Source of the DNA: an uncultured archaeon
Lineage (GTDB): Archaea; Thermoplasmatota; Thermoplasmata; Thermoplasmatales; Thermoplasmataceae
Length of the DNA stretch: 64,000 bases
Direction: 5' to 3'
Assembly: GCA_000965745.1 (NCBI GenBank)
Contig: CP009479.1
Coordinates: forward strand, 832,001 to 896,000
Shown: piece after piece, positions 11,606 to 63,695 of the stretch
Position numbering within the stretch: position 1 is the stretch's first letter
Layout of the letters: every line of letters starts with the position of its first letter
Program-made: the position numbers and the translations under genes
Notes under the pieces: model-generated
Told to the model about the DNA's origin: nothing
What the model saw: only the letters and a program-made list of their open reading frames with translations
Database searches by the model: none

Positions 11606-12793
11606 TTGCTTCCATATTGCAGAAAATGCAAGGGGTACACAAAGAAGTGCACCCTTGACTCATGTCCGATGCTGAACATTAAGGTTAAAGCGTCAGGCAA
11701 TCTTCCCATCGGAACTGGCCAGATAGCTTCCTTTACTCCTCCGGGCATTTTCATCGGGACATATAATTACCCTAACGTTTTTGCCGGTCCCCTTGCGGTA
11801 GCAGACCCTGAGGCGGGATATCCCTCTGGCAAGGAGTACGGGAAGACCATTGAGGATGTAATTTCCCTCAACAACAATGTGTACCGTGCTTCTCAGAAGA
11901 CAAGAGTCAAGGATATGGGGGCAGGATTCACCATTTCATTGCAGGAATCTACGATGTCTTTGGACTTTGTTGACATGGAACTGGATGTAGCGAGGCATCT
12001 TCATGCTACCACCGATATGGACAGAATTTCAGAGGCCCCAATGAGATCAATGGTAGAGCTCAACTCAATGAAGATTACATCCAACCCCAGGATTCCTAGA
12101 AGGGTTGACTATTTCCATGGAGACACTGACCTCAAAGCTGAGGACGCCGTATGGGCACTTTACAAATCCGGGTTAGGCATCACATACCTAGAAGGAGTCC
12201 TTTCATCGGGGTCGCTTGGAATAGGGAGGAGAAGAAGGCTGGTTCCAACCAGATGGTCAATAACCGCTGTAGATGATATTATCTACAGGAACATGAAACA
12301 GGAGATCATTGACTTGCCAATAATTCCCGGGATAGAGGTATTCAAAAAATCATACCTTGGAAATGATTTCACAATTGTCCTGCTTCCATACTCCATGGCA
12401 TATGAAATGCAGGAGATGTGGAACAGCGGTTTTTCAGCCACCAATAAAAATGTGAGTATAGATCATGAGTTCATGGAGGGGAGGAAGAAATATGCCAGCA
12501 ATGTCGGGGGGGCTTATTACGCGGCCAGACTTGCAGTGTTTGAATACCTCACGCGGATACGGAGGCAGGCCTCAGTCATAGTCCTCCGGACCATCGGAAG
12601 TGAATATTACACCCCACTGGGCGTATGGCTCGTCAGGGAGACTGTCAGGGATGCATTTAAGACCAGGCCTGCCAAATATGCTTCAGTTGAGGATCTGGTC
12701 AGGAATGAACCCACAGGAATAAAAAACTGGCACGGCTTGTCCAAAGTTCTCAGGAACACCTATGTTCAGAAGAGCATATTCGAGTATATCTGA
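11606..12793 (+). CDS. nreA: Nre family DNA repair protein (DUF650/DUF651)
   Basis: N-terminal Cys cluster, RLVPTRWSITAVD, GGAYYAARL, C-terminal PIP box QKSIFEY. Confidence 0.85.
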   Translation: MLPYCRKCKGYTKKCTLDSCPMLNIKVKASGNLPIGTGQIASFTPPGIFIGTYNYPNVFAGPLAVADPEAGYPSGKEYGKTIEDVISLNNNVYRASQKTRVKDMGAGFTISLQESTMSLDFVDMELDVARHLHATTDMDRISEAPMRSMVELNSMKITSNPRIPRRVDYFHGDTDLKAEDAVWALYKSGLGITYLEGVLSSGSLGIGRRRRLVPTRWSITAVDDIIYRNMKQEIIDLPIIPGIEVFKKSYLGNDFTIVLLPYSMAYEMQEMWNSGFSATNKNVSIDHEFMEGRKKYASNVGGAYYAARLAVFEYLTRIRRQASVIVLRTIGSEYYTPLGVWLVRETVRDAFKTRPAKYASVEDLVRNEPTGIKNWHGLSKVLRNTYVQKSIFEYI

Positions 12794-13693: not shown

Positions 13694-14353
13694 ATGACTC
13701 TCACCCCCGCTCAGATCGATCACATAGCTAACGATCTAAAATCCTTGATAAGAGTGGAGAAGAAGTCAAAAAAGGTAAAAAAACTCGATGGCGGCTTCTA
13801 CAAAGGTGTAGTCGATGCTCTGGAGACTCTCAGGTCAGAATCGGAGAAGCATTTGAAAAACCAGGATATTTCGAGCTACATAAACATCAACAACAGGATC
13901 CAGGACATTGAGAGGGATTTCAAGGACTTTTTCCAGAGGCGCTTCAGCAAGATGGCAATCCTCTCCCTCTACGAGCTCGACTCGGACCTCATGAACTCAC
14001 TCACCGGGGAGGAGAGGGAATTTGTGATCAGGCTTCATAACATGATGCAGGATGAATTCAACAGGCTTCTTCTGAAAGAGAGAGTGGCCCACGAAGAGGA
14101 GGTCGAAGAGCCCGAATTGCAGCCCGCAGATGAGAAAGAGGAACCAGTTCGGCAGCAAGAGATCCGTGAGACCCACGAGCAGGCTGCAGAAAAGAAGTTC
14201 ATCCTCGTTAGAATCGTGGGGGATCAGCCTCCTATCGCCCAACCTGAAAGAGATTACTATCTTCATGACAACGATCTCGTATATCTACCCGAGAATTTCG
14301 CTGAACTTCTAGTTAAGCGCAAGACTGCTGTCAAGGTTAACATCAGGATATAA
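13694..14353 (+). CDS. DNA replication complex GINS protein (A-domain, acidic linker, C-terminal B-domain)
   Basis: Helical A-domain (RRFSKM..LTGEER), acidic linker, beta-rich B-domain ILVRIVGD..YYLHDNDLVYLPENFAELLVKRKTA. Confidence 0.82.
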   Translation: MTLTPAQIDHIANDLKSLIRVEKKSKKVKKLDGGFYKGVVDALETLRSESEKHLKNQDISSYININNRIQDIERDFKDFFQRRFSKMAILSLYELDSDLMNSLTGEEREFVIRLHNMMQDEFNRLLLKERVAHEEEVEEPELQPADEKEEPVRQQEIRETHEQAAEKKFILVRIVGDQPPIAQPERDYYLHDNDLVYLPENFAELLVKRKTAVKVNIRI

Positions 14354-54819: not shown

Positions 54820-54904
54820 GCAGGGGTTGTCGAGATTGGTCAAAGGCGCTAGATTGAGGGTCTAGTCCCGTAGGGGTACGTGGGTTCAAATCCCATCCCC
54901 TGCA
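54820..54904 (+). tRNA. tRNA-Leu (anticodon GAG); probable integration site
   Basis: GCAGGGG/CCCCTGC acceptor stem, CTAGA-TTGAGGG-TCTAG anticodon arm, long variable arm, GGTTCAAATCC T-arm; TATA-like sequence upstream. Confidence 0.96.
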
Positions 54905-55166
54905 TACCTCCAAATGTTCAAAACACTACACCAGCAAACGATCCATTTTTGTAACTCTTTAAATACTAAGCGTAATTCATACTACTATATTCATATTTAA
55001 ACATCACTAATTGTGTTTTAAACACATACTCTTTGAGAAGGAATTGTCGGAATTGGCATAGGAAAATGGTTTCCCCATTCTATTAGGTTGAACCTTACAG
55101 CGGCATAGAAAATTCCAAATTTCCGCCTTGTAGAGAAAAATATTAACGAAGATTTAAATTATTGGG

Positions 55167-56237
55167 GTGCCTGTAATACGTAAGGATATGATCGAAGAAA
55201 GCAATCCAGCAGAGGATTCAATTCGACACTTTGCGGCCCAGGCATCTGCTTTTAAAAGTCACAAGAAAGCAAGGGACGCTGCATTTAAAGCTTGGAGAAC
55301 AATGAGAGCTAGAGAGCTTGAAATAGCTTCTAGGGGAGTTCCAAGGCTAGATAAATTCAACAAAGACGCATACCTAGTTCCAGAAGGCGTCAGCTTCTCG
55401 ACATACAGGACTTCTTCTCCTTTAGTTAAAACCTCAAAGCTAACGAGCAAGGAAAATGGCGGTGTTGGGAAGGAACTCTCAGACGGTTGGGTAGCAAATT
55501 ATGCTACAGGATGCACTCATGGATGCAAATTCTGCTACGTGGATGCAATCCATAAAAAATTTGGTCAGAAAAGGGTTGGCAGTATTGTGTATGATGACTG
55601 GGGAGATTACTTTGCTATCCCTTCCAATCTGGACGAGGTTATTGAAAATACTAAGTGGAAGAGGTGGAGCGGGACTGAAGTGATGCTTTCATCAACTCAT
55701 GACCCATATCTTCCTCAGGTTAACAAGTACACAAGAAAAATCCTCGAAAAGGCTCTTCCCGAAGGGGTAAAATTCTGCATACAAACGAGAAATCCACTTG
55801 TGGAGCGTGATATGGAGCTTATAAGTCAATACCGGGACCAAGTGAGACTTCAGGTGTCCATAGCATCAATGAATGAGGATCTCTCCAGAGCTATAGAACC
55901 AAGGGTAGTTAAACCAGAAAGAAGACTGCAAATCCTCGAAAAGGCTAGAGAACATGGGCTGAATACCGGAGTCATAATAGCTCCTGTATTCCCGGAACTA
56001 AAAATCAGACCACACGTTTATGCAGACATAAAAGCCATTGCCTCAAGACTAGAGACATTTAGGCCAGACCACATATATGGCGAATCACTGCATCTAAGGG
56101 GAATAAACATAGCATATGTTGAAGATGCACTTGGGCAAGCAGTGAATATCGATGGGTTTGACAAAAAGGCGGAAGAATGGTTCCACAAAGCCTTAAGTTG
56201 CTATAATCTGAAAGGAATTTGGTGGAAGGAGTTTTGA
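55167..56237 (+). CDS. Radical SAM protein, SPL/SplB-related
   Basis: NYATGCTHGCKFCY (CxxxCxxC), SSTHDPY, IQTR, IAPVFP. Confidence 0.85.
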   Translation: MPVIRKDMIEESNPAEDSIRHFAAQASAFKSHKKARDAAFKAWRTMRARELEIASRGVPRLDKFNKDAYLVPEGVSFSTYRTSSPLVKTSKLTSKENGGVGKELSDGWVANYATGCTHGCKFCYVDAIHKKFGQKRVGSIVYDDWGDYFAIPSNLDEVIENTKWKRWSGTEVMLSSTHDPYLPQVNKYTRKILEKALPEGVKFCIQTRNPLVERDMELISQYRDQVRLQVSIASMNEDLSRAIEPRVVKPERRLQILEKAREHGLNTGVIIAPVFPELKIRPHVYADIKAIASRLETFRPDHIYGESLHLRGINIAYVEDALGQAVNIDGFDKKAEEWFHKALSCYNLKGIWWKEF

Positions 56238-56244
56238 ACTATTC

Positions 56245-57255
56245 TTATTCAGTATCAAACTTCAGGGTCTGTTGTTCAAAACATTTGTTAAGGGCTGTCT
56301 CAGCATCTTGTCCAGTGACATTTTCAAGATGGTAGGCTATCCAGTTAACAGACTTGACCCAATCACTTCCGGTTAGTGTATTTCTCGTGTAATAACCTAA
56401 GTGATATACGGGTGTATTTTTACGGGAATAAATTGGGAAAGCTTGCCCCTTCTCTTTTCCTATGCTATCTTCGAATTGTTTGTTCAACAGGCTTCTATAG
56501 GTTCCCTTCGAGTTTAGGTCGTTCATTTCAACATCAAGTATTTCCTTCAACTCCTCTGGGGTTTTGCCCAAACTGGTGCATATTGCCTTTACATAACCTA
56601 GATTACCTTTCTTCAGGGCACCATAAACTCGTTCAGATCCAGAGCTAATATTCACTAGGTAATCAACCCCTAAGTATTTTGAAGATAGGTATCTGTAAGT
56701 TCTCCAGTCAGTTTCCATTCCTTCTTGGTCCCCAAGGGCAAAAATAAGTGGCTTTTCAAATTTTTCTTCTATCAATTTGACGGCTTCACCGATTTTTTTA
56801 TTACAGTTGCCCTCGATTACATGAAACTTATCTTGAAGCCCCATTTGACCAACCCTACTTTTCAAGAGGCGAGCTCTCTCTTCGTTGCTCTCAATAAATA
56901 TCGCCATGTCAAATTCTCTGTTTCCCTCTTGTTCCACGGTTGCCGCAAAAGGAGATCCCACAACAGCTCTAAGTTTGCTACCTCTCTTGCCTCTAGTGAC
57001 AGTAAGGCCACCTCCCGCGTACAGGTCAAGATAAATAGCTCCGTCATAATTTGCAGAAATAGCTTTTTCTCCCTTAGCTACCATCAGAAATCTGCTTGCA
57101 ATGCTCCTCACTGCAACCAGTTTAGACAGCGTATAGGGCTTATAACTCACATCGTGGCTCGATGGTTCAAACACTTTTGCTAGCCTGACAATAGTTTCTA
57201 TTCTGTCGCTTAAATATTTGATAGAGGCATCAATACTCGGTTTCCTGACTTCCAA
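56245..57255 (-). CDS. TcmP-like (three-Cys-motif partner) SAM-dependent methyltransferase-fold protein
   Basis: YLDLYAGGG, GSP, FIE..ER...L, GNCN, DQEG..W, PVYHL pattern. Confidence 0.7.
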   Translation of the reverse strand: MEVRKPSIDASIKYLSDRIETIVRLAKVFEPSSHDVSYKPYTLSKLVAVRSIASRFLMVAKGEKAISANYDGAIYLDLYAGGGLTVTRGKRGSKLRAVVGSPFAATVEQEGNREFDMAIFIESNEERARLLKSRVGQMGLQDKFHVIEGNCNKKIGEAVKLIEEKFEKPLIFALGDQEGMETDWRTYRYLSSKYLGVDYLVNISSGSERVYGALKKGNLGYVKAICTSLGKTPEELKEILDVEMNDLNSKGTYRSLLNKQFEDSIGKEKGQAFPIYSRKNTPVYHLGYYTRNTLTGSDWVKSVNWIAYHLENVTGQDAETALNKCFEQQTLKFDTE

Positions 57256-57594: not shown

Positions 57595-57801
57595 ATGGTT
57601 GACAGAATAAGTGTAGCTTGCCATGATGACTTCTTGGAAAGTCTTGATAAGCTTTCAGAAAGGCTTACGCTCTCCAGAAGTGCAACGCTAAGGCTAGGAG
57701 TGTATGAGTTGGCTAAAAAGGAAGGTATGGGCCCTGGTGACGTTAACACCAGGAATCCCGTGGACAGTTCCCAGGAGTTGAACCAAGGAGAGTCCGTATG
57801 A
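57595..57801 (+). CDS. Ribbon-helix-helix (CopG-like) regulator
   Basis: RISVAC strand, LDKLSERL helix, SRSATLRLGV helix; TATA TTATATAA about 30 nt upstream. Confidence 0.75.
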   Translation: MVDRISVACHDDFLESLDKLSERLTLSRSATLRLGVYELAKKEGMGPGDVNTRNPVDSSQELNQGESV

Positions 57802-57943: not shown

Positions 57944-60094
57944 ATGCAACCAAGTGGTTATTCTGCACTTTCAGTGGCCTTAAGTCCTGGTCAGATAGAT
58001 GAGTTTGAGAAACGCCTGCAGTTCCTCACAGAAGGTCGTTCAAAGAAATTCAGCGAGGTTTTGTCACAATATTCTGCGGTCGCAATCACTTTGCATCAGG
58101 CAAAGGAAATTGATCGCCTGAGAGGGATTCAAAGCAAACTGGTCAGGGTGTATGACATTTACAGCGGATATGACCAGCCCGACCCCGCTCCAGAGCTAGT
58201 TGAGGGATGGATGGAATCTGTAAGAGAGGAGGTCATCAATAAGAACGAAGTTGACCGTCAAAAGCTAGCCCAGGAAATAAACGAGGAATACGGGTTTGCC
58301 AATCTAAATGGTGTCGAGTTCCTTAGATACGATGATGCTGAAGGATATTGGAAGCCTGATGCTGAGTTGTTCATAGGGAAGATAGTCAGACATGTTCTGC
58401 CCGATGAGTCCACACAACATATTGTCAATGAGGTTTGCCATTGGATTAAGGACTATAGACTATTAGCAAACCCTTCTGAATTTGAGAAAGTCCCTGATGG
58501 GTTGATAAATATGCCAAGAGGTGTGTTCAACATCAGAACGGGAAAGCTGGAACCCCACAATCCAGACTACCACTTCAGATATGTGTTGCCTTTCAACTAC
58601 AATCACAGGGCCAGGAAGTCCAAGTTCATGAAGGTCCTTTCCGAGATTACTGAGGATGACCCCCGTAAAGCTGTTAGGGTTCTAGAGATGTTTGCATGGG
58701 TCCTCATTCCTGGATATCCCATACAGAAAGCTATTGCACTGTATGGGAACGGAAACAATGGAAAATCAGTGATTTTGGGAGTTCTGTCTGCATTTGTAGG
58801 CTCCCTAAATGTCTCTGGCGTCACTATGCAGCAGTTATGTGACAACAGATTTGCCGCAGCAAATCTTAGAGGGGCCCTTGCCAACATCTCAGGAGATGTC
58901 GGTGCAGGTGCATTACTGGACACCTCTCAGTTCAAGCAGGCAACGGGAGGGGACAGAATAGATGCGGAGAAGAAGGGCGTTCAGGAACCCTTACGGTTCT
59001 GGAACACAGCTAAGATGATCTTCTCCTTCAATACTCTTCCAAGAACCAGAGATACCACTAATGCGTATTTCAGGCGGTTTGAGTTAATTGAGTTGGTACA
59101 GGACTTTGAAGGCAGAGAGGACAAGAAGCTTCTGAGCAAGCTCACAACAGAGGATGAGTTGCAGTCCATATTCAACACAGTCAGTTCGGTATTCCTGCCA
59201 GCGCTCCTGGATAAGCTGGAGTTCGAGTTCGGAAAGAAGGCTGATGAAATCAGGACAAATTACGAATTGAATGCAAATTCCGCTCTTGCATTCATAGATG
59301 AAAGAATAGCGCCTAACAGCATTGGACAGATACTTTCCCAAGACCTATATGCCAAATATACTGAATGGTGCAAGGAAAAAGGAGTTGTTGCACTCTCAGA
59401 GGAATCCTTCGGAAGTGCACTCATCAAGCTGTCAGGCATAGAAGGGGTTTTTAAGTCTCGAAAGCAGGAGAACGGTGTCAGGAAAAACTACTACGTTGGA
59501 ATATCTTTGACAACACCTGAGAATGATTCTAACAAACCTAAAAACAAGGAAGAGACCCCGACCTATGGCACGTTTGAAGAGGCAGTATTAGACTATATTT
59601 CCAATCACTTCAAGGACCGGAGTGCCATAGGTGGCATAGTATCTGTACTCCCGGATGGTTTGGGAAACGGTACGAGAGTACAAAACCCATGCCACCTATG
59701 GCAGCAAAAGAGAACCATACTCTCAAAAGATGCCGTAATAGCATCTCCAGAGAAGTGCCATAGCTTATCGGTACCTATGGCAGAAGATGATTCCAAAGAC
59801 TGTGTCTCCCCATCTGAAGTTGACGACATCAGCGAAAGTAATGAAAACGAGGGAGTGCAGACAGATACTGAAAAATCACTGCTTGAAAGAGTTATCGACC
59901 TTCTTACTGATTGTACATACAACACCACAGAGAAATTCAGATCTGTTCAGTATCTTGCTGAAGCAGCAATAGACGGAGACATCACACATAGCACAATCTA
60001 CGAGGCTCTGGAGGAAGGGGTTAGCCGGGGACAGGTAGTCAAGAAGGGTGCAAAGTACGGATTCAAGTGTTACGTTGGAGGTGATTCAACATGA
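57944..60094 (+). CDS. D5/P4-type SF3 replicative helicase (D5_N + SF3 + wHTH)
   Basis: INMPRGVFNIRTG..PHNPD D5_N, Walker A GNGNNGKS, FKQATGGD, FSFNTLP, AYFRR, LYAKYTEWC; start moved to ATG 57944 behind GGAGG. Confidence 0.9.
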   Translation: MQPSGYSALSVALSPGQIDEFEKRLQFLTEGRSKKFSEVLSQYSAVAITLHQAKEIDRLRGIQSKLVRVYDIYSGYDQPDPAPELVEGWMESVREEVINKNEVDRQKLAQEINEEYGFANLNGVEFLRYDDAEGYWKPDAELFIGKIVRHVLPDESTQHIVNEVCHWIKDYRLLANPSEFEKVPDGLINMPRGVFNIRTGKLEPHNPDYHFRYVLPFNYNHRARKSKFMKVLSEITEDDPRKAVRVLEMFAWVLIPGYPIQKAIALYGNGNNGKSVILGVLSAFVGSLNVSGVTMQQLCDNRFAAANLRGALANISGDVGAGALLDTSQFKQATGGDRIDAEKKGVQEPLRFWNTAKMIFSFNTLPRTRDTTNAYFRRFELIELVQDFEGREDKKLLSKLTTEDELQSIFNTVSSVFLPALLDKLEFEFGKKADEIRTNYELNANSALAFIDERIAPNSIGQILSQDLYAKYTEWCKEKGVVALSEESFGSALIKLSGIEGVFKSRKQENGVRKNYYVGISLTTPENDSNKPKNKEETPTYGTFEEAVLDYISNHFKDRSAIGGIVSVLPDGLGNGTRVQNPCHLWQQKRTILSKDAVIASPEKCHSLSVPMAEDDSKDCVSPSEVDDISESNENEGVQTDTEKSLLERVIDLLTDCTYNTTEKFRSVQYLAEAAIDGDITHSTIYEALEEGVSRGQVVKKGAKYGFKCYVGGDST

Positions 60095-60282
60095 TCCCTT
60101 CACTTGAATCATTCGAGACCAAACAGCAGGACACCATGATACTGGTTGCCATTTCGCAGGACTTCAATGTTGCCTGGAAGGACCGGGACTGGTATCTGCA
60201 CGAACAGGGCCTCGTATATCTTGATGTGGAGCTCGCTGAAATGCTGATTCAGAGGGGCATTGCCAGGAGGGTGAGAAGATGA
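60091..60282 (+). CDS. Stand-alone GINS B-domain homolog
   Basis: 21/46 identical by hand alignment to the C-terminal domain of host GINS (13694-14353); ATGA overlap with helicase; GGAGGTGA SD. Confidence 0.8.
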   Translation: MIPSLESFETKQQDTMILVAISQDFNVAWKDRDWYLHEQGLVYLDVELAEMLIQRGIARRVRR

Positions 60283-60638
60283 AACGAGGACTGAATCCGG
60301 GGAAATCGCTCGCAGACAAGCTCCAGCTATTGCCCAAGAAGGTCCCCAGACTCATCCAGGAAAACCTGGATGGGATAGCATCTCCATACCTTGGAAATAT
60401 TGTGGTTATCTCTGACCAGGGGCAACAGGATGCACTGGGCAGTGAGATTATCAGTTTTCTTGAGGCCGAGGGGTTTGCTCTGGAGGCCGCACCCGTATAT
60501 GTGCGACACAAGGATCACATTGGAAAGGTCTGGAAGTTTTCGCTGGGGCTCTATGTCAGTCTGTTCTACCGCGTACAGGAAGCAAATAACATCTCAATCA
60601 CTGGAAGGATTGCAAGGGTCCAGGGGAGGTTCCCATGA
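60279..60638 (+). CDS. Hypothetical protein (element)
   Basis: ATGA-coupled, SD present. Confidence 0.65.
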   Translation: MKRGLNPGKSLADKLQLLPKKVPRLIQENLDGIASPYLGNIVVISDQGQQDALGSEIISFLEAEGFALEAAPVYVRHKDHIGKVWKFSLGLYVSLFYRVQEANNISITGRIARVQGRFP

Positions 60639-60838
60639 AATTCGGAAAATACTCTGTCTCGGAGGTTCAGAAATTCAAGGGCCAACTCGTGAAGGTCTAT
60701 TACTTCGATGTCAACAAGGGCCTGGTCACCCACGCTGGCGAAGTGCTGAATCGTTCATTCAAGTATCTGCCCGTAGAATCTCGGACCTGGAGGAAGAGGA
60801 TACCCCTGGAGCAAATCGTGGAGGTCCAGGAAATATGA
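60635..60838 (+). CDS. Small beta-rich hypothetical protein (element)
   Basis: ATGA-coupled, GGAGGT SD. Confidence 0.6.
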   Translation: MKFGKYSVSEVQKFKGQLVKVYYFDVNKGLVTHAGEVLNRSFKYLPVESRTWRKRIPLEQIVEVQEI

Positions 60839-60969
60839 CTCTCAGAAAGCTACTCATCAGAATATACGAGAACTATCTCTGGCTAGCATACTACAGGCTG
60901 AAATCACGCATTTTCGGGGAGCCTGAATACATATTTCTTGGGGAGGATGACAATGCAGATCGCCCGTGA
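60835..60969 (+). CDS. 44-aa hypothetical protein (element)
   Basis: ATGA overlap, GGAGGT SD; MTLRKLLIRIYENYLWLAYYRLKSRIFGEP... Confidence 0.5.
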   Translation: MTLRKLLIRIYENYLWLAYYRLKSRIFGEPEYIFLGEDDNADRP

Positions 60970-61213
60970 GGAAAGGGAAAGGGCCCGAATCCTTTGGCTG
61001 GTGAAAGAGTCAGAATGGCAATCGGCCAAGCATATAGCTGCGAGATACCAGGAACTGTATCACGAAGAGATGAGCGTCCAGAAAGTCAAGAATATCCTGC
61101 AGCTCTTCATAGATGAGGGTCTCATAAGAGCCAAATCAACAAGACAGCGGAATTTCGCCAGGAATGTCTATTCCAGGAATGAGCCAACACTTATAAGCGA
61201 GGAAAAACTATAA
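60953..61213 (+). CDS. Winged-helix DNA-binding protein
   Basis: RILWLVKE..SAKHIA..SVQKVKNILQLFIDEGLI..VY pattern; GGAGG SD. Confidence 0.72.
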   Translation: MQIAREERERARILWLVKESEWQSAKHIAARYQELYHEEMSVQKVKNILQLFIDEGLIRAKSTRQRNFARNVYSRNEPTLISEEKL

Positions 61214-61404: not shown

Positions 61405-62271
61405 ATGGAAAAATTGAAACCTAAACTAAAACGGTTCACCATTTTCGGGTTCCTGGCGGTCATGATCGCCGTGATTGCGCTGCCAGTGGGAACCTCGTTT
61501 GCCCAGGGCATCAGTGGGCATGGAAACACTCAACTGTACTCCACTCAGTTCGTGTCAGAGGCCCTGGCAATGCAGAATGGTACAACTACCTACAGCGCAC
61601 TGCCCTTCAGTTCTGTGAATGGTTCATATACCATTTCAAACAGCTACCTGGTCGCAGGAGTCAACAACACAACTTTCACGGAGAATTACGGTGTAGTCTA
61701 TCTTGCATCGAATATAACATTCAGCGAACTTTCATCTCACTCAGTCAACAAGCTTGTTGCACACATATCTCCAGTCTCCAACATCACAGCAGAACTTGGA
61801 TTTGGGTCTGCATCAGTGACACCTAACGGAACATCTCTCTCATTCACGCCACTGCTTTCACAGAACACCACGGGAACAAATGGCTCTGCAACAATGACAT
61901 TCAACCTTAACCCAGCTGAGCTCTCTGAAAACTCAACAGATGTTGTCGTTCTCAAGCTCCAGTTCACCAATGCATCATCATCGTTTTCAGCCTCAGGCTA
62001 TGTTCTAGGCACCCAGAACGCTGAACCATGGTACATAGCAGGCGAATCTGCAGCCTATGCAGTTGGCGGAACTCTGCTCTTTGCATTCGGATTTCTTGCA
62101 CTCCCACACCTTGACATCAAGGTCAACAAGGCTAAGCTCCCATCGCTCCCAAGGAAGAAGTCCAAGTCATCACGGAAGACACAGACAACTCAGTACAGGC
62201 AGCAGGTCCAGAGAGCAAAACAGGTGAACAGCAGCAACAGAAAGAACTCGAAAAAAGGAGGTCGAAAGTAA
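61405..62271 (+). CDS. Type I membrane glycoprotein with strongly basic C-terminal tail (putative virion protein)
   Basis: Signal peptide, about 11 N-x-S/T sequons, C-terminal TM, 18 K/R and no D/E in the last 50 aa; TATA-like GGTATATATAT upstream. Confidence 0.75.
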   Translation: MEKLKPKLKRFTIFGFLAVMIAVIALPVGTSFAQGISGHGNTQLYSTQFVSEALAMQNGTTTYSALPFSSVNGSYTISNSYLVAGVNNTTFTENYGVVYLASNITFSELSSHSVNKLVAHISPVSNITAELGFGSASVTPNGTSLSFTPLLSQNTTGTNGSATMTFNLNPAELSENSTDVVVLKLQFTNASSSFSASGYVLGTQNAEPWYIAGESAAYAVGGTLLFAFGFLALPHLDIKVNKAKLPSLPRKKSKSSRKTQTTQYRQQVQRAKQVNSSNRKNSKKGGRK

Positions 62272-62738
62272 TGGCAGACACAGACTACATGCTATACAAG
62301 CGGATTATCTCGAAGCGTATGAGTGTCGGTGCAACCATCCTGGCATCATTCCTGGTGCTCATAGAACTTGCACTGCTCTTCTCTAGACCGTCATTCGGAT
62401 TCGCTGGACATACCTACTACGTCAGCCAGGGTGTTGCAGCCTTTGCAATGCTCATTGGTGCACTCTTTTGGGCCATTGCAGAGATGTTCACACCCGCAGG
62501 AAGGACATTCTGGGCCCTGGCATCACGGTTCATAGTTGCATTCCTGATTGGCGGAATATTCGGCGGTATAGTCGGTTCAGTGAGTGATTTCGGGCAGCTT
62601 GTGCTGGTCCCTGCATCAAACGGAAACGGGCTTGCAATATTCATGCTCCTGGGGTATCTCTGGGTATTCATCGTCCTGGTATATTCCGGTGCATGGATGC
62701 ACGCCAAGAACTTTGTCAAGAGAGGTGGTAAGCAGTGA
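62271..62738 (+). CDS. Four-TM membrane protein (putative virion protein)
   Basis: TAATG overlap, AGGAGGT SD, four hydrophobic segments. Confidence 0.75.
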   Translation: MADTDYMLYKRIISKRMSVGATILASFLVLIELALLFSRPSFGFAGHTYYVSQGVAAFAMLIGALFWAIAEMFTPAGRTFWALASRFIVAFLIGGIFGGIVGSVSDFGQLVLVPASNGNGLAIFMLLGYLWVFIVLVYSGAWMHAKNFVKRGGKQ

Positions 62739-63085
62739 ATGTGGTAACGGCAATCGCAGCCAAGGTGCTCCCCGCAACAACAAGCGGCTCAGGGACATCC
62801 GGTCTTGGAATGACCATCTTCAACTCGATCTGGAAGTTGGTGATGGGATTCCTTGGCGGCATACTGGATGGGGTCAACCTTCTCATGAAGGATACCTTTG
62901 GCGGTATCGGCCAAGCGATCATGCAGGTATTCCAGTCCTGGGGATTCTCGGTGAACTCTCAGTTCGGTGTCTGGGCCCCTGTCGGACTCGTCCTGGTGCT
63001 TGGTGTAGCTGGAGCCCTGATATACGTCATGTTTGACGCAATCGGCATAGAGAAGGACGTGCTGCACGGGGAAGAAGACATATAG
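62735..63085 (+). CDS. Small hydrophobic protein, paralog 1
   Basis: Amphipathic helix plus FGVWAPVGLVLVL TM. Confidence 0.72.
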   Translation: MNVVTAIAAKVLPATTSGSGTSGLGMTIFNSIWKLVMGFLGGILDGVNLLMKDTFGGIGQAIMQVFQSWGFSVNSQFGVWAPVGLVLVLGVAGALIYVMFDAIGIEKDVLHGEEDI

Positions 63086-63102
63086 ATGGAGGGTGAAAAT
63101 AA

Positions 63103-63363
63103 TTGACACTCTCCATTCTCACTTTTTTTACCCAGATTTTCCAGTTCATAATTCAGGGATTGTTCGGTCTCATCAGCGGCTCTTTTGACTTCATTCTCTC
63201 GCTGGCAGGCAGCAGCATTCAGTCAGTGTCTGAACAGTTCGCACTGTCTGTTGAGGCATTCGGTATATGGTCCGTTCCGATGCTTGTTGTTGTCCTATCA
63301 ATCACTGCAATCGGAGTATATGCGATCTTATCAGGGAGCGAAATGGTGGAGGGTCTCATTTGA
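63103..63363 (+). CDS. Small hydrophobic protein, paralog 2
   Basis: TTG start with GGAGGGTGA SD; FGIWSVPMLVVVL TM. Confidence 0.72.
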   Translation: MTLSILTFFTQIFQFIIQGLFGLISGSFDFILSLAGSSIQSVSEQFALSVEAFGIWSVPMLVVVLSITAIGVYAILSGSEMVEGLI

Positions 63364-63695
63364 GCGTAGTCAGCTTCTTCCAGAATCTCGGTCAGCAGGC
63401 ATGGGGAGGTCTCACATGGCTCTACAATAATACAATAGGAGCAGGTCTGACTCTCTTTCAGAATGAAGTTCTGTCAGGTGCTGAATCCTTTGTCCTCAGC
63501 ATTGCATCAGCGGCGCTCTCATTCTTTGGACTCATACTGTCCACAATCAATGGGATATTCGCCAGCTTCTTCAGCTCAATAGTGTTTATCTCTGCCAGTT
63601 TGGGAGTTTGGGCATTGCCTGTGGTGGTGTTCATACTCTTGGCTGTTTTCATCGTTATGTACACGTTCATCAAGCTGGTTGTAGACCTTCTGTGA
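63360..63695 (+). CDS. Small hydrophobic protein, paralog 3
   Basis: TTGA overlap with GGAGG SD (start moved from 63267); LGVWALPVVVFIL TM. Confidence 0.72.
   Translation: MSVVSFFQNLGQQAWGGLTWLYNNTIGAGLTLFQNEVLSGAESFVLSIASAALSFFGLILSTINGIFASFFSSIVFISASLGVWALPVVVFILLAVFIVMYTFIKLVVDLL

Follow-up and report, generated by a model that had tools for sequence, protein, structure and literature searches.

Recruitment of the host replisome is a known strategy of viruses and plasmids: the SV40 T antigen recruits Pol alpha-primase, and SIRV2 PIP proteins bind PCNA. On the archaeal side, the isolated C-terminal B-domain of the GINS subunit Gins51 (Gins51C) binds DP1N, the N-terminal domain of the DNA polymerase D (PolD) subunit DP1, and GAN simultaneously, one on each of two opposing faces, and through tethered PolD unwinding is coupled with synthesis (PMC9023282). 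The connection between primase and GINS is made by PolD, which then exchanges primase for PCNA, and the cPIP of DP2 in T. kodakarensis binds both PriL and PCNA (PMC8096248). In Gins51C of the same species, residues D163, M164 and I166 of strand 4 are required for GAN binding (PMC5100581).

Here we describe a Gins51-type B-domain encoded by itself in a mobile element, found in a window of 64,000 nucleotides (the whole stretch of DNA analysed) from the genome of an archaeon of the Thermoplasmataceae. The 63-residue protein, referred to below as the mini, is real and conserved, and is probably a replisome adaptor.

A stand-alone GINS B-domain behind an element helicase

The mini, the helicase gene that precedes it and the GINS gene of the host are arranged in the window as follows.

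57944..60094 (+), D5-type SF3 helicase of 716 aa (D5_N, DUF5906, Pox_D5), Walker A at residue 268
59867..60082 (+), additional domain at the helicase C-terminus, winged-helix-like by its sequence pattern, with a DCTYN motif
60077..60084 (+), Shine-Dalgarno sequence GGAGGTGA, within the helicase 3' end and 6 nt before the mini ATG
60091..60282 (+), mini-GINS-B gene, 63 aa: PIP-like N-terminal peptide, short linker, Gins51-type B-domain
60094..60117 (+), PIP-like peptide, residues 2-9, IPSLESFE (family consensus QxTLDxF; Gln absent here)
60133..60273 (+), GINS B-domain core, residues 15-61: four strands, helix, strand
13694..14353 (+), host GINS, Gins51-type with A and B domains, the B-domain at about 14195-14341

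The open reading frame at 60091-60282 is a genuine gene, and both its sequence and its fold show homology to the Gins51 B-domain. BLASTP aligns the mini with residues 159-215 of the host GINS only, at 23 identities in 57 positions with one gap (E 7e-11), and 21 of the 47 core columns are identical, which bears out the alignment with the GINS C-terminus claimed in the original prediction. The local alignment score of 91 lies far above that of 5000 shuffles (26.8 ± 4.4, maximum 51), so that chance similarity is excluded, and in the complete 2.23-Mb genome, whose genes suggest membership of the Thermoplasmatales, the host GINS is the sole other clear match. That the gene at 13694-14353 is itself a GINS follows from the family profile, which matches T. 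kodakarensis GINS (3ANW chain A, E 1.7e-4) and 7YIL. A profile of the element family finds the host GINS at E 4e-23 and gives no score to the C-terminus of the host primase subunit PriS.

The AlphaFold2 model of the mini (mean pLDDT 80) contains one short helix, and in VIA-align its best matches are GINS chains: 9MOJ_D (Z 8.3, rmsd 2.5, 59 aligned), residues 129-186 of 3ANW_A (Z 7.4, rmsd 2.7) and 5GHR_B (Z 7.1, rmsd 2.1). These are followed by the C-terminal domain of PriS (PriS-CTD; 1ZT2, Z 7.0, rmsd 4.4, 58 aligned) and then by L9-N, while Foldseek returned a list of mostly GINS chains, none at E ≤ 0.001. Proteins with other roles also adopt this fold (L9-N, PriS-CTD and phage gpFI/DUF7210 proteins); because the fold alone is common, assignment of the mini to the Gins51 B-domain rests on its sequence. 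An origin from PriS-CTD was rejected, since the host PriS has no sequence match to the mini. Pfam gave no Gins51_C (PF22090) match for the mini, and the host GINS is likewise under the curated cut-off; at E ≤ 0.1, PF22090 is matched by 22 of 36 aligned host and element domains. A word-based protein search with the mini returned only itself, the queries used found no match in IMG/VR, INPHARED phages or PLSDB plasmids, and a PDB sequence search with B-domain profiles found none.

The mini ATG overlaps the helicase TGA (60092-60094) as ATGA, an arrangement for translational coupling. Fused relatives exist (see below); nonetheless, the mini is a separate gene rather than a frameshifted helicase tail, because its frame is open only two codons upstream and it has its own Shine-Dalgarno sequence. 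It lacks the helical, tetramer-forming A-domain and is therefore not a GINS subunit. The strong Shine-Dalgarno sequence, the overlap and the missing A-domain had all been predicted correctly.

The integrative element

The mini sits in an 11.2-kb element integrated at tRNA-Leu(GAG) and bounded by a 12-bp direct repeat. Its right end, with attR and the integrase, lies 0.7-2.1 kb past the end of the window.

54894..54905 (+), attL, 12-bp direct repeat at the 3' end of tRNA-Leu(GAG)
55167..57255 (both strands), accessory genes at the left end: radical SAM protein (+), methyltransferase-like ORF (-, no Pfam match)
57595..57801 (+), ribbon-helix-helix regulator, first in the replication operon (RHH_1, E 1.2e-4, over cut-off)
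60279..61213 (+), three small ORFs downstream of the mini, of 119, 67 and about 90 aa, the last wHTH-like
61405..63695 (+), five hydrophobic or membrane proteins in one operon, gene order kept in related elements L041 and L068
genome 896731-898035 (-), tyrosine integrase (E 9e-26)
genome 898090-898101, attR

An empty integration site exists: in two metagenome runs, which are possibly the source of this DNA, contigs break at both att repeats, and one contig joins the tRNA letters directly to the right flank. Contig depth is lower inside the element (67 against about 150, and 32 against about 72), although depth does not give a share of cells. With its integrase, att repeats and empty site, this is a tRNA-targeting integrative element. 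No circular (attP) joint was found among the contigs of four runs, contigs being prone to drop rare forms, and scans for sigma-70 promoters and terminators stayed at chance level.

The D5_N, SF3 ATPase and Pox_D5 domains of the helicase all score above the Pfam cut-off. A primase domain was sought in its 716 residues and gave no match to Pfam or to the primpol profile of related elements, residues 1-130 had no named Atlas match, and no polymerase or primase gene was found in the 11.2-kb element. The winged-helix-like DCTYN domain, for which profile search found no host homologue, is found in three Rep types that differ in other respects and that each have a separate mini (the window helicase, L038, L039, L043, L064, L041, L077 and L079). 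Among the three small downstream ORFs, the last two have homologues in related elements.

The membrane operon (window 61405-63695; L041:3336-6175; L068:1622-3869) includes three paralogous small hydrophobic proteins without a Pfam match and is conserved among elements that use different Reps; it could possibly encode virion or pilin-like proteins. The element cargo comprises a radical SAM gene (SPL/DUF5131-like) convergent with the methyltransferase-like gene.

Stand-alone and helicase-fused forms

We defined the family by searching the order (169 genomes), the class (401 genomes) and, with a profile, 1.84 billion proteins. Each of the 169 genomes has one GINS, and beside these stand extra copies 47-63% identical to the mini; the family profile recovers the single GINS in most genomes of the class, in which extra copies are almost confined to this archaeal family. 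With the members added from the 1.84 billion proteins, the family consists of about 25 stand-alone minis and 22 proteins in which the domain is fused to Rep/helicase-type proteins. In all 19 loci with upstream context, the stand-alone mini lies in the same operon as a large Rep/helicase-type gene and zero to two small genes behind it, mostly with a strong Shine-Dalgarno sequence and a stop-start overlap; these counts are not independent trials, since the loci are related. The large genes are of the following kinds.

D5 helicases: window, L033, L034, L040, L070, L078
UvrD helicase plus partner: L041, L042, L077, L079
other Walker-A proteins: L037, L068
834-861-aa Rep family related to primpol-helicase: L038, L039, L043, L064, L142
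large genes without a class label: L066, L072

The repeated linkage of mini and element helicase agrees with the original prediction, although its restriction to SF3 partners was too narrow, UvrD-type and uncharacterised Reps being partners as well.

In the 22 fused proteins, mostly known as protein only and without genomic context, the domain usually sits at or close to the C-terminal end of a Rep of D5, primpol-helicase or related type. Split and fused forms make up related pairs: L037 (split) and P0022 (fused) are 84% identical, the pairs L055/P0130 and L079/P0043 are 42% and 37% identical, and the window helicase is 41-48% identical to the fused proteins P0036, P0065 and L045. To judge from these alignments, fusion and fission of the domain with Reps recur. 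The module is optional, being carried by 10 of the 29 D5-helicase loci in the family, and it is present also in elements with their own primase-polymerase (L035, L040, P0130).

Several further features of these elements were observed. In L041, L042, L077, L079 and L144, a UvrD/SF1 helicase and a partner of 450-510 aa replace the SF3 helicase in the replication operon. The 834-861-aa Rep family (L038:2466-4970, L039:1317-3866, L043:556-3141, L064:2939-5482) has no Pfam or PHROG match, a weak relation to primpol-helicase (E 1e-10) and a conserved 119-aa gene always downstream of it. Damaged copies occur at L044:9526-10008 (half a mini joined to a D5_N fragment), L057:2183-2359 (a truncated mini), and L055:452-718 and L056:1309-1575 (frames that lie behind primpol-helicases and have no clear start codon). 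A second small domain, unrelated to GINS-B in sequence, ends other element Reps (L112, L072, L049, P0048, P0052), including two more Reps of this genome (G000:C1:1131411-1133471 and 1506932-1508767, both on the minus strand), and L049, P0052 and P0048 have it and the GINS-B domain in tandem. The model of this second domain has the same GINS-B/L9-N fold (best match 9MOJ_B, Z 6.2, with L9-N scoring equally). Gins51_C-like proteins of 60-75 aa also form clusters in the Atlas, a hint that the theme is wider than these elements.

A PIP-like peptide on unfused domains

The original description of the ORF missed a PIP-like peptide at its N-terminus, which is present in 24 of 25 stand-alone forms (short matches chosen for a plausible native start) and, next to the domain, in none of the 22 fused forms. 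The strict pattern, Gln-x-x-aliphatic-x-x-aromatic, is found in 20 of the 25, with an additional internal match in P0064 left out of this count, and a Gln-less form in four more, including the window mini. Over a 12-residue span, which contains 19 of the 20 strict peptides, the background among 1895 ORF N-termini of the genome is 6 for the strict pattern and 10 for either. The C-terminal end of host Fen1 has the same PIP pattern, while the window peptide resembles the Gln-less DP2 cPIP, the host DP2 ending in VLESYW plus four residues. Because it is present in split forms and absent from fused ones, the peptide appears to replace the covalent link. In the L037/P0022 pair, the fused form also lacks the last 90 residues of the Rep, a stretch resembling a winged helix.

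A second small element protein of about 88 aa (L034:5941-6207, L040:8343-8603, L046:11733-12011, L047:11657-11935, L064:7756-8022) likewise opens with a TLDxF PIP-like motif. On the host side, a DNA repair gene of Nre-like type, whose product has a clear PIP box at its C-terminus, lies at window 11606-12793, two genes upstream of the host GINS.

Selection and origin

Compared with each of nine other element copies, the window mini has dN/dS values of 0.10-0.32 at nearly saturated dS; the ratio gives no sign of neutral decay, and by this measure the mini family is under purifying selection. The mini core is 60-68% identical to element copies of other genera and 45% identical to the GINS of its own host, and in a quick tree the mini groups with 16 other element domains (SH-aLRT 95), a larger tree being mostly unresolved. 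Since identity and tree place the mini with element copies, capture of the Gins51 B-domain is probably old. The captured domain foreseen by the original prediction is thus host-derived by homology, but recent capture from this host is disfavoured, though not formally rejected (AU test of a clade with the own host GINS, p 0.06 on 57 columns).

The prediction had also pointed to a sequence shared by the two genes. The 11-mer CTCGTATATCT is indeed found in both, but it is no evidence of recent capture, because it encodes the conserved L-V-Y-L stretch and because an 11-mer in common with the mini ORF turns up in 4% of 660-nt stretches taken at random from the genome. The strand 2-3 hairpin distinguishes element copies from host GINS; P0081 keeps the host-type hairpin and may represent a separate, later capture.

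A proposed link to host PolD

We propose, with a probability of roughly 0.6, that the mini is an adaptor that brings host PolD, via DP1N, and hence primase and PCNA to the element fork, with the peptide replacing the covalent link. The element would open the fork with its own helicase, having no primase or polymerase of its own. The captured B-domain would then bind the N-terminal domain of DP1, and in most family members possibly RecJ/GAN as well, so that PolD would arrive carrying primase and then PCNA, supplying the enzymes that the element lacks. In fused forms the helicase itself would bear the hook; in split forms the PIP-like peptide would serve as a tether, most likely to PCNA or PriL at the fork, or alternatively to the C-terminal winged helix of the Rep. 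In the host genome, the region of DP1N/PolD is at 228598-230028 (minus strand), RecJ at 2099653-2101008 and PCNA at 1230611-1231357. Linkage at every locus with upstream context favours this reading, and it is strengthened by the repeated fusion of the domain to helicases; the binding steps are what we infer.

The predicted complex of the mini with host DP1N, built with an element-only alignment, agrees weakly with such binding. It scored 0.36 against 0.00 for the best control, with runs agreeing in at least 89% of contacts and a partner pLDDT of at least 75; among 80 solved pairs 58 reach the score mark, as do 2 among 110 mismatched ones, but only 7 of the 80 solved pairs do so at scores of 0.60 or below, where both mismatches also lie. 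Since a like complex is already solved, the pass may merely reflect that known structure.

Docking of GAN/RecJ on the B-domain, part of the original prediction, leads to the best surviving alternative, namely that in place of PolD the module chiefly recruits the host RecJ/GAN nuclease (the Cdc45 homologue), or else has host GINS/CMG as its docking site. The host has one DHH-family RecJ-like gene, and T. acidophilum RecJ2 binds GINS51 (PMC11193018). At position 40, which corresponds to D163 by a mapping taken from the range offset of the fold alignment alone, Asp is invariant in host GINS and kept in 89% of the element family; the window mini has Gly, a difference that the prediction overlooked and by which this copy may have dropped RecJ binding. 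Moreover, Gins51C alone gave no stimulation of GAN nuclease (PMC5100581), and fork progression in vitro gained from PolD but little from GAN (PMC9023282). We regard a chiefly RecJ-directed role as unlikely.

Still less probable is a decoy that titrates PolD, PCNA or RecJ from host forks and slows host replication, the other function that the prediction had entertained. A free B-domain without an A-domain could compete with GINS, its PIP peptide could compete for PCNA, and Gins51C together with DP1N seemed to inhibit growth in yeast two-hybrid experiments (PMC9023282). Fused forms fit such titration poorly: repeated fusion to the element's own helicase, with the peptide lost exactly on fusion, speaks for positioning, the mini is translationally coupled to the helicase, and small elements need the same host enzymes. 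A comparably low probability attaches to the idea that the domain has been repurposed to bind element proteins or DNA only, for instance in helicase loading or oligomerisation. The divergence of element copies at the strand 2-3 hairpin would suit it, as would the unrelated second family of the same fold at the ends of other element Reps and the other roles of this fold in phages. Nevertheless, residues common with host GINS are retained across a broad range of elements, and the module is passed among Reps that are not homologous, a mobility that a constant host partner fits better than a changing element partner. Decay of the window copy within a functional family is very improbable: it lacks the PIP Gln and Asp40, has the shortest linker, and broken copies occur elsewhere (L044, L057), but its frame is open behind a strong Shine-Dalgarno sequence, helicase, integrase and both att repeats are intact, dN/dS is as low as in other copies, and the Gln is also missing from the peptides of three other minis and from DP2 cPIPs.

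Returning to the PolD adaptor, a wider reading is that these proteins form an undescribed adaptor class, in which a captured Gins51 B-domain, fused or PIP-tethered, connects host PolD-primase-PCNA with element helicases of several unrelated kinds (D5/SF3, primpol-helicase, UvrD-type and uncharacterised Reps), giving CMG-like coupling without MCM or a GINS tetramer; we consider the chances of this to be about even. Elements that fuse or tether a captured hook suggest a new way for parasites to plug into host replication. The mini is a 63-residue candidate, with named partners and residues, for how archaeal elements without a primase or polymerase engage the host replisome, and the DP1N-Gins51C contact has a conserved eukaryotic counterpart in Dpb2-Psf1. 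If the element uses only this hook, the B-domain would be a portable polymerase-coupling module independent of MCM, and the fused and split pairs are natural experiments on its tethering. Possible yields include replicons with which to do genetics in Thermoplasmatales, and a small inhibitor that blocks assembly of the archaeal replisome.

Comparison with known systems

The mini has the same fold as archaeal Gins51C (PF22090; 3ANW, 5GHR; PMC9023282) and clear homology to the host domain; isolated Gins51C suffices to bind DP1N and GAN (PMC9023282). Unlike Gins51C within GINS, the mini has no A-domain, and hence forms no GINS tetramer and makes no MCM contact; the element encodes no MCM gene. Also unlike the host domain, it is encoded by mobile elements and either carries a PIP-like peptide or is fused to non-MCM Reps. 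The PriS C-terminal domain (PMC2861644) shares the small fold, whereas host PriS has no sequence match. With respect to the PIP box and DP2 cPIP (Fen1, Nre, DP2; PMC8096248), the family peptide fits the host Fen1 pattern and its Gln-less form fits the DP2 cPIP, but the peptide is N-terminal, its second aromatic is usually aliphatic, and it occurs only on unfused domains.

Archaeal primpol-SF3 or MCM replicons (PMC6563490, PMC3914693, PMC4889955) are likewise small and integrative, with their own replicative helicase and a dependence on host enzymes. Unlike the primpol-SF3 elements, the SF3 helicase here has no primase, and surveys of these elements mention no GINS domain borne by an element (GINS has 0 occurrences in PMC4889955 and PMC6563490). 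More generally, an element-borne GINS B-domain was not found in the literature searched, which included surveys of viral and archaeal element replication, although coverage was incomplete and absence is unproven; to this extent, the expectation that the pairing of helicase and mini-GINS is undescribed held.

As with SV40 and SIRV2, a helicase or a small viral protein would bring host replication enzymes to the fork of the parasite. The difference from both lies in the hook, which here is a captured domain of the host replisome itself, fused or split, across unrelated helicases.
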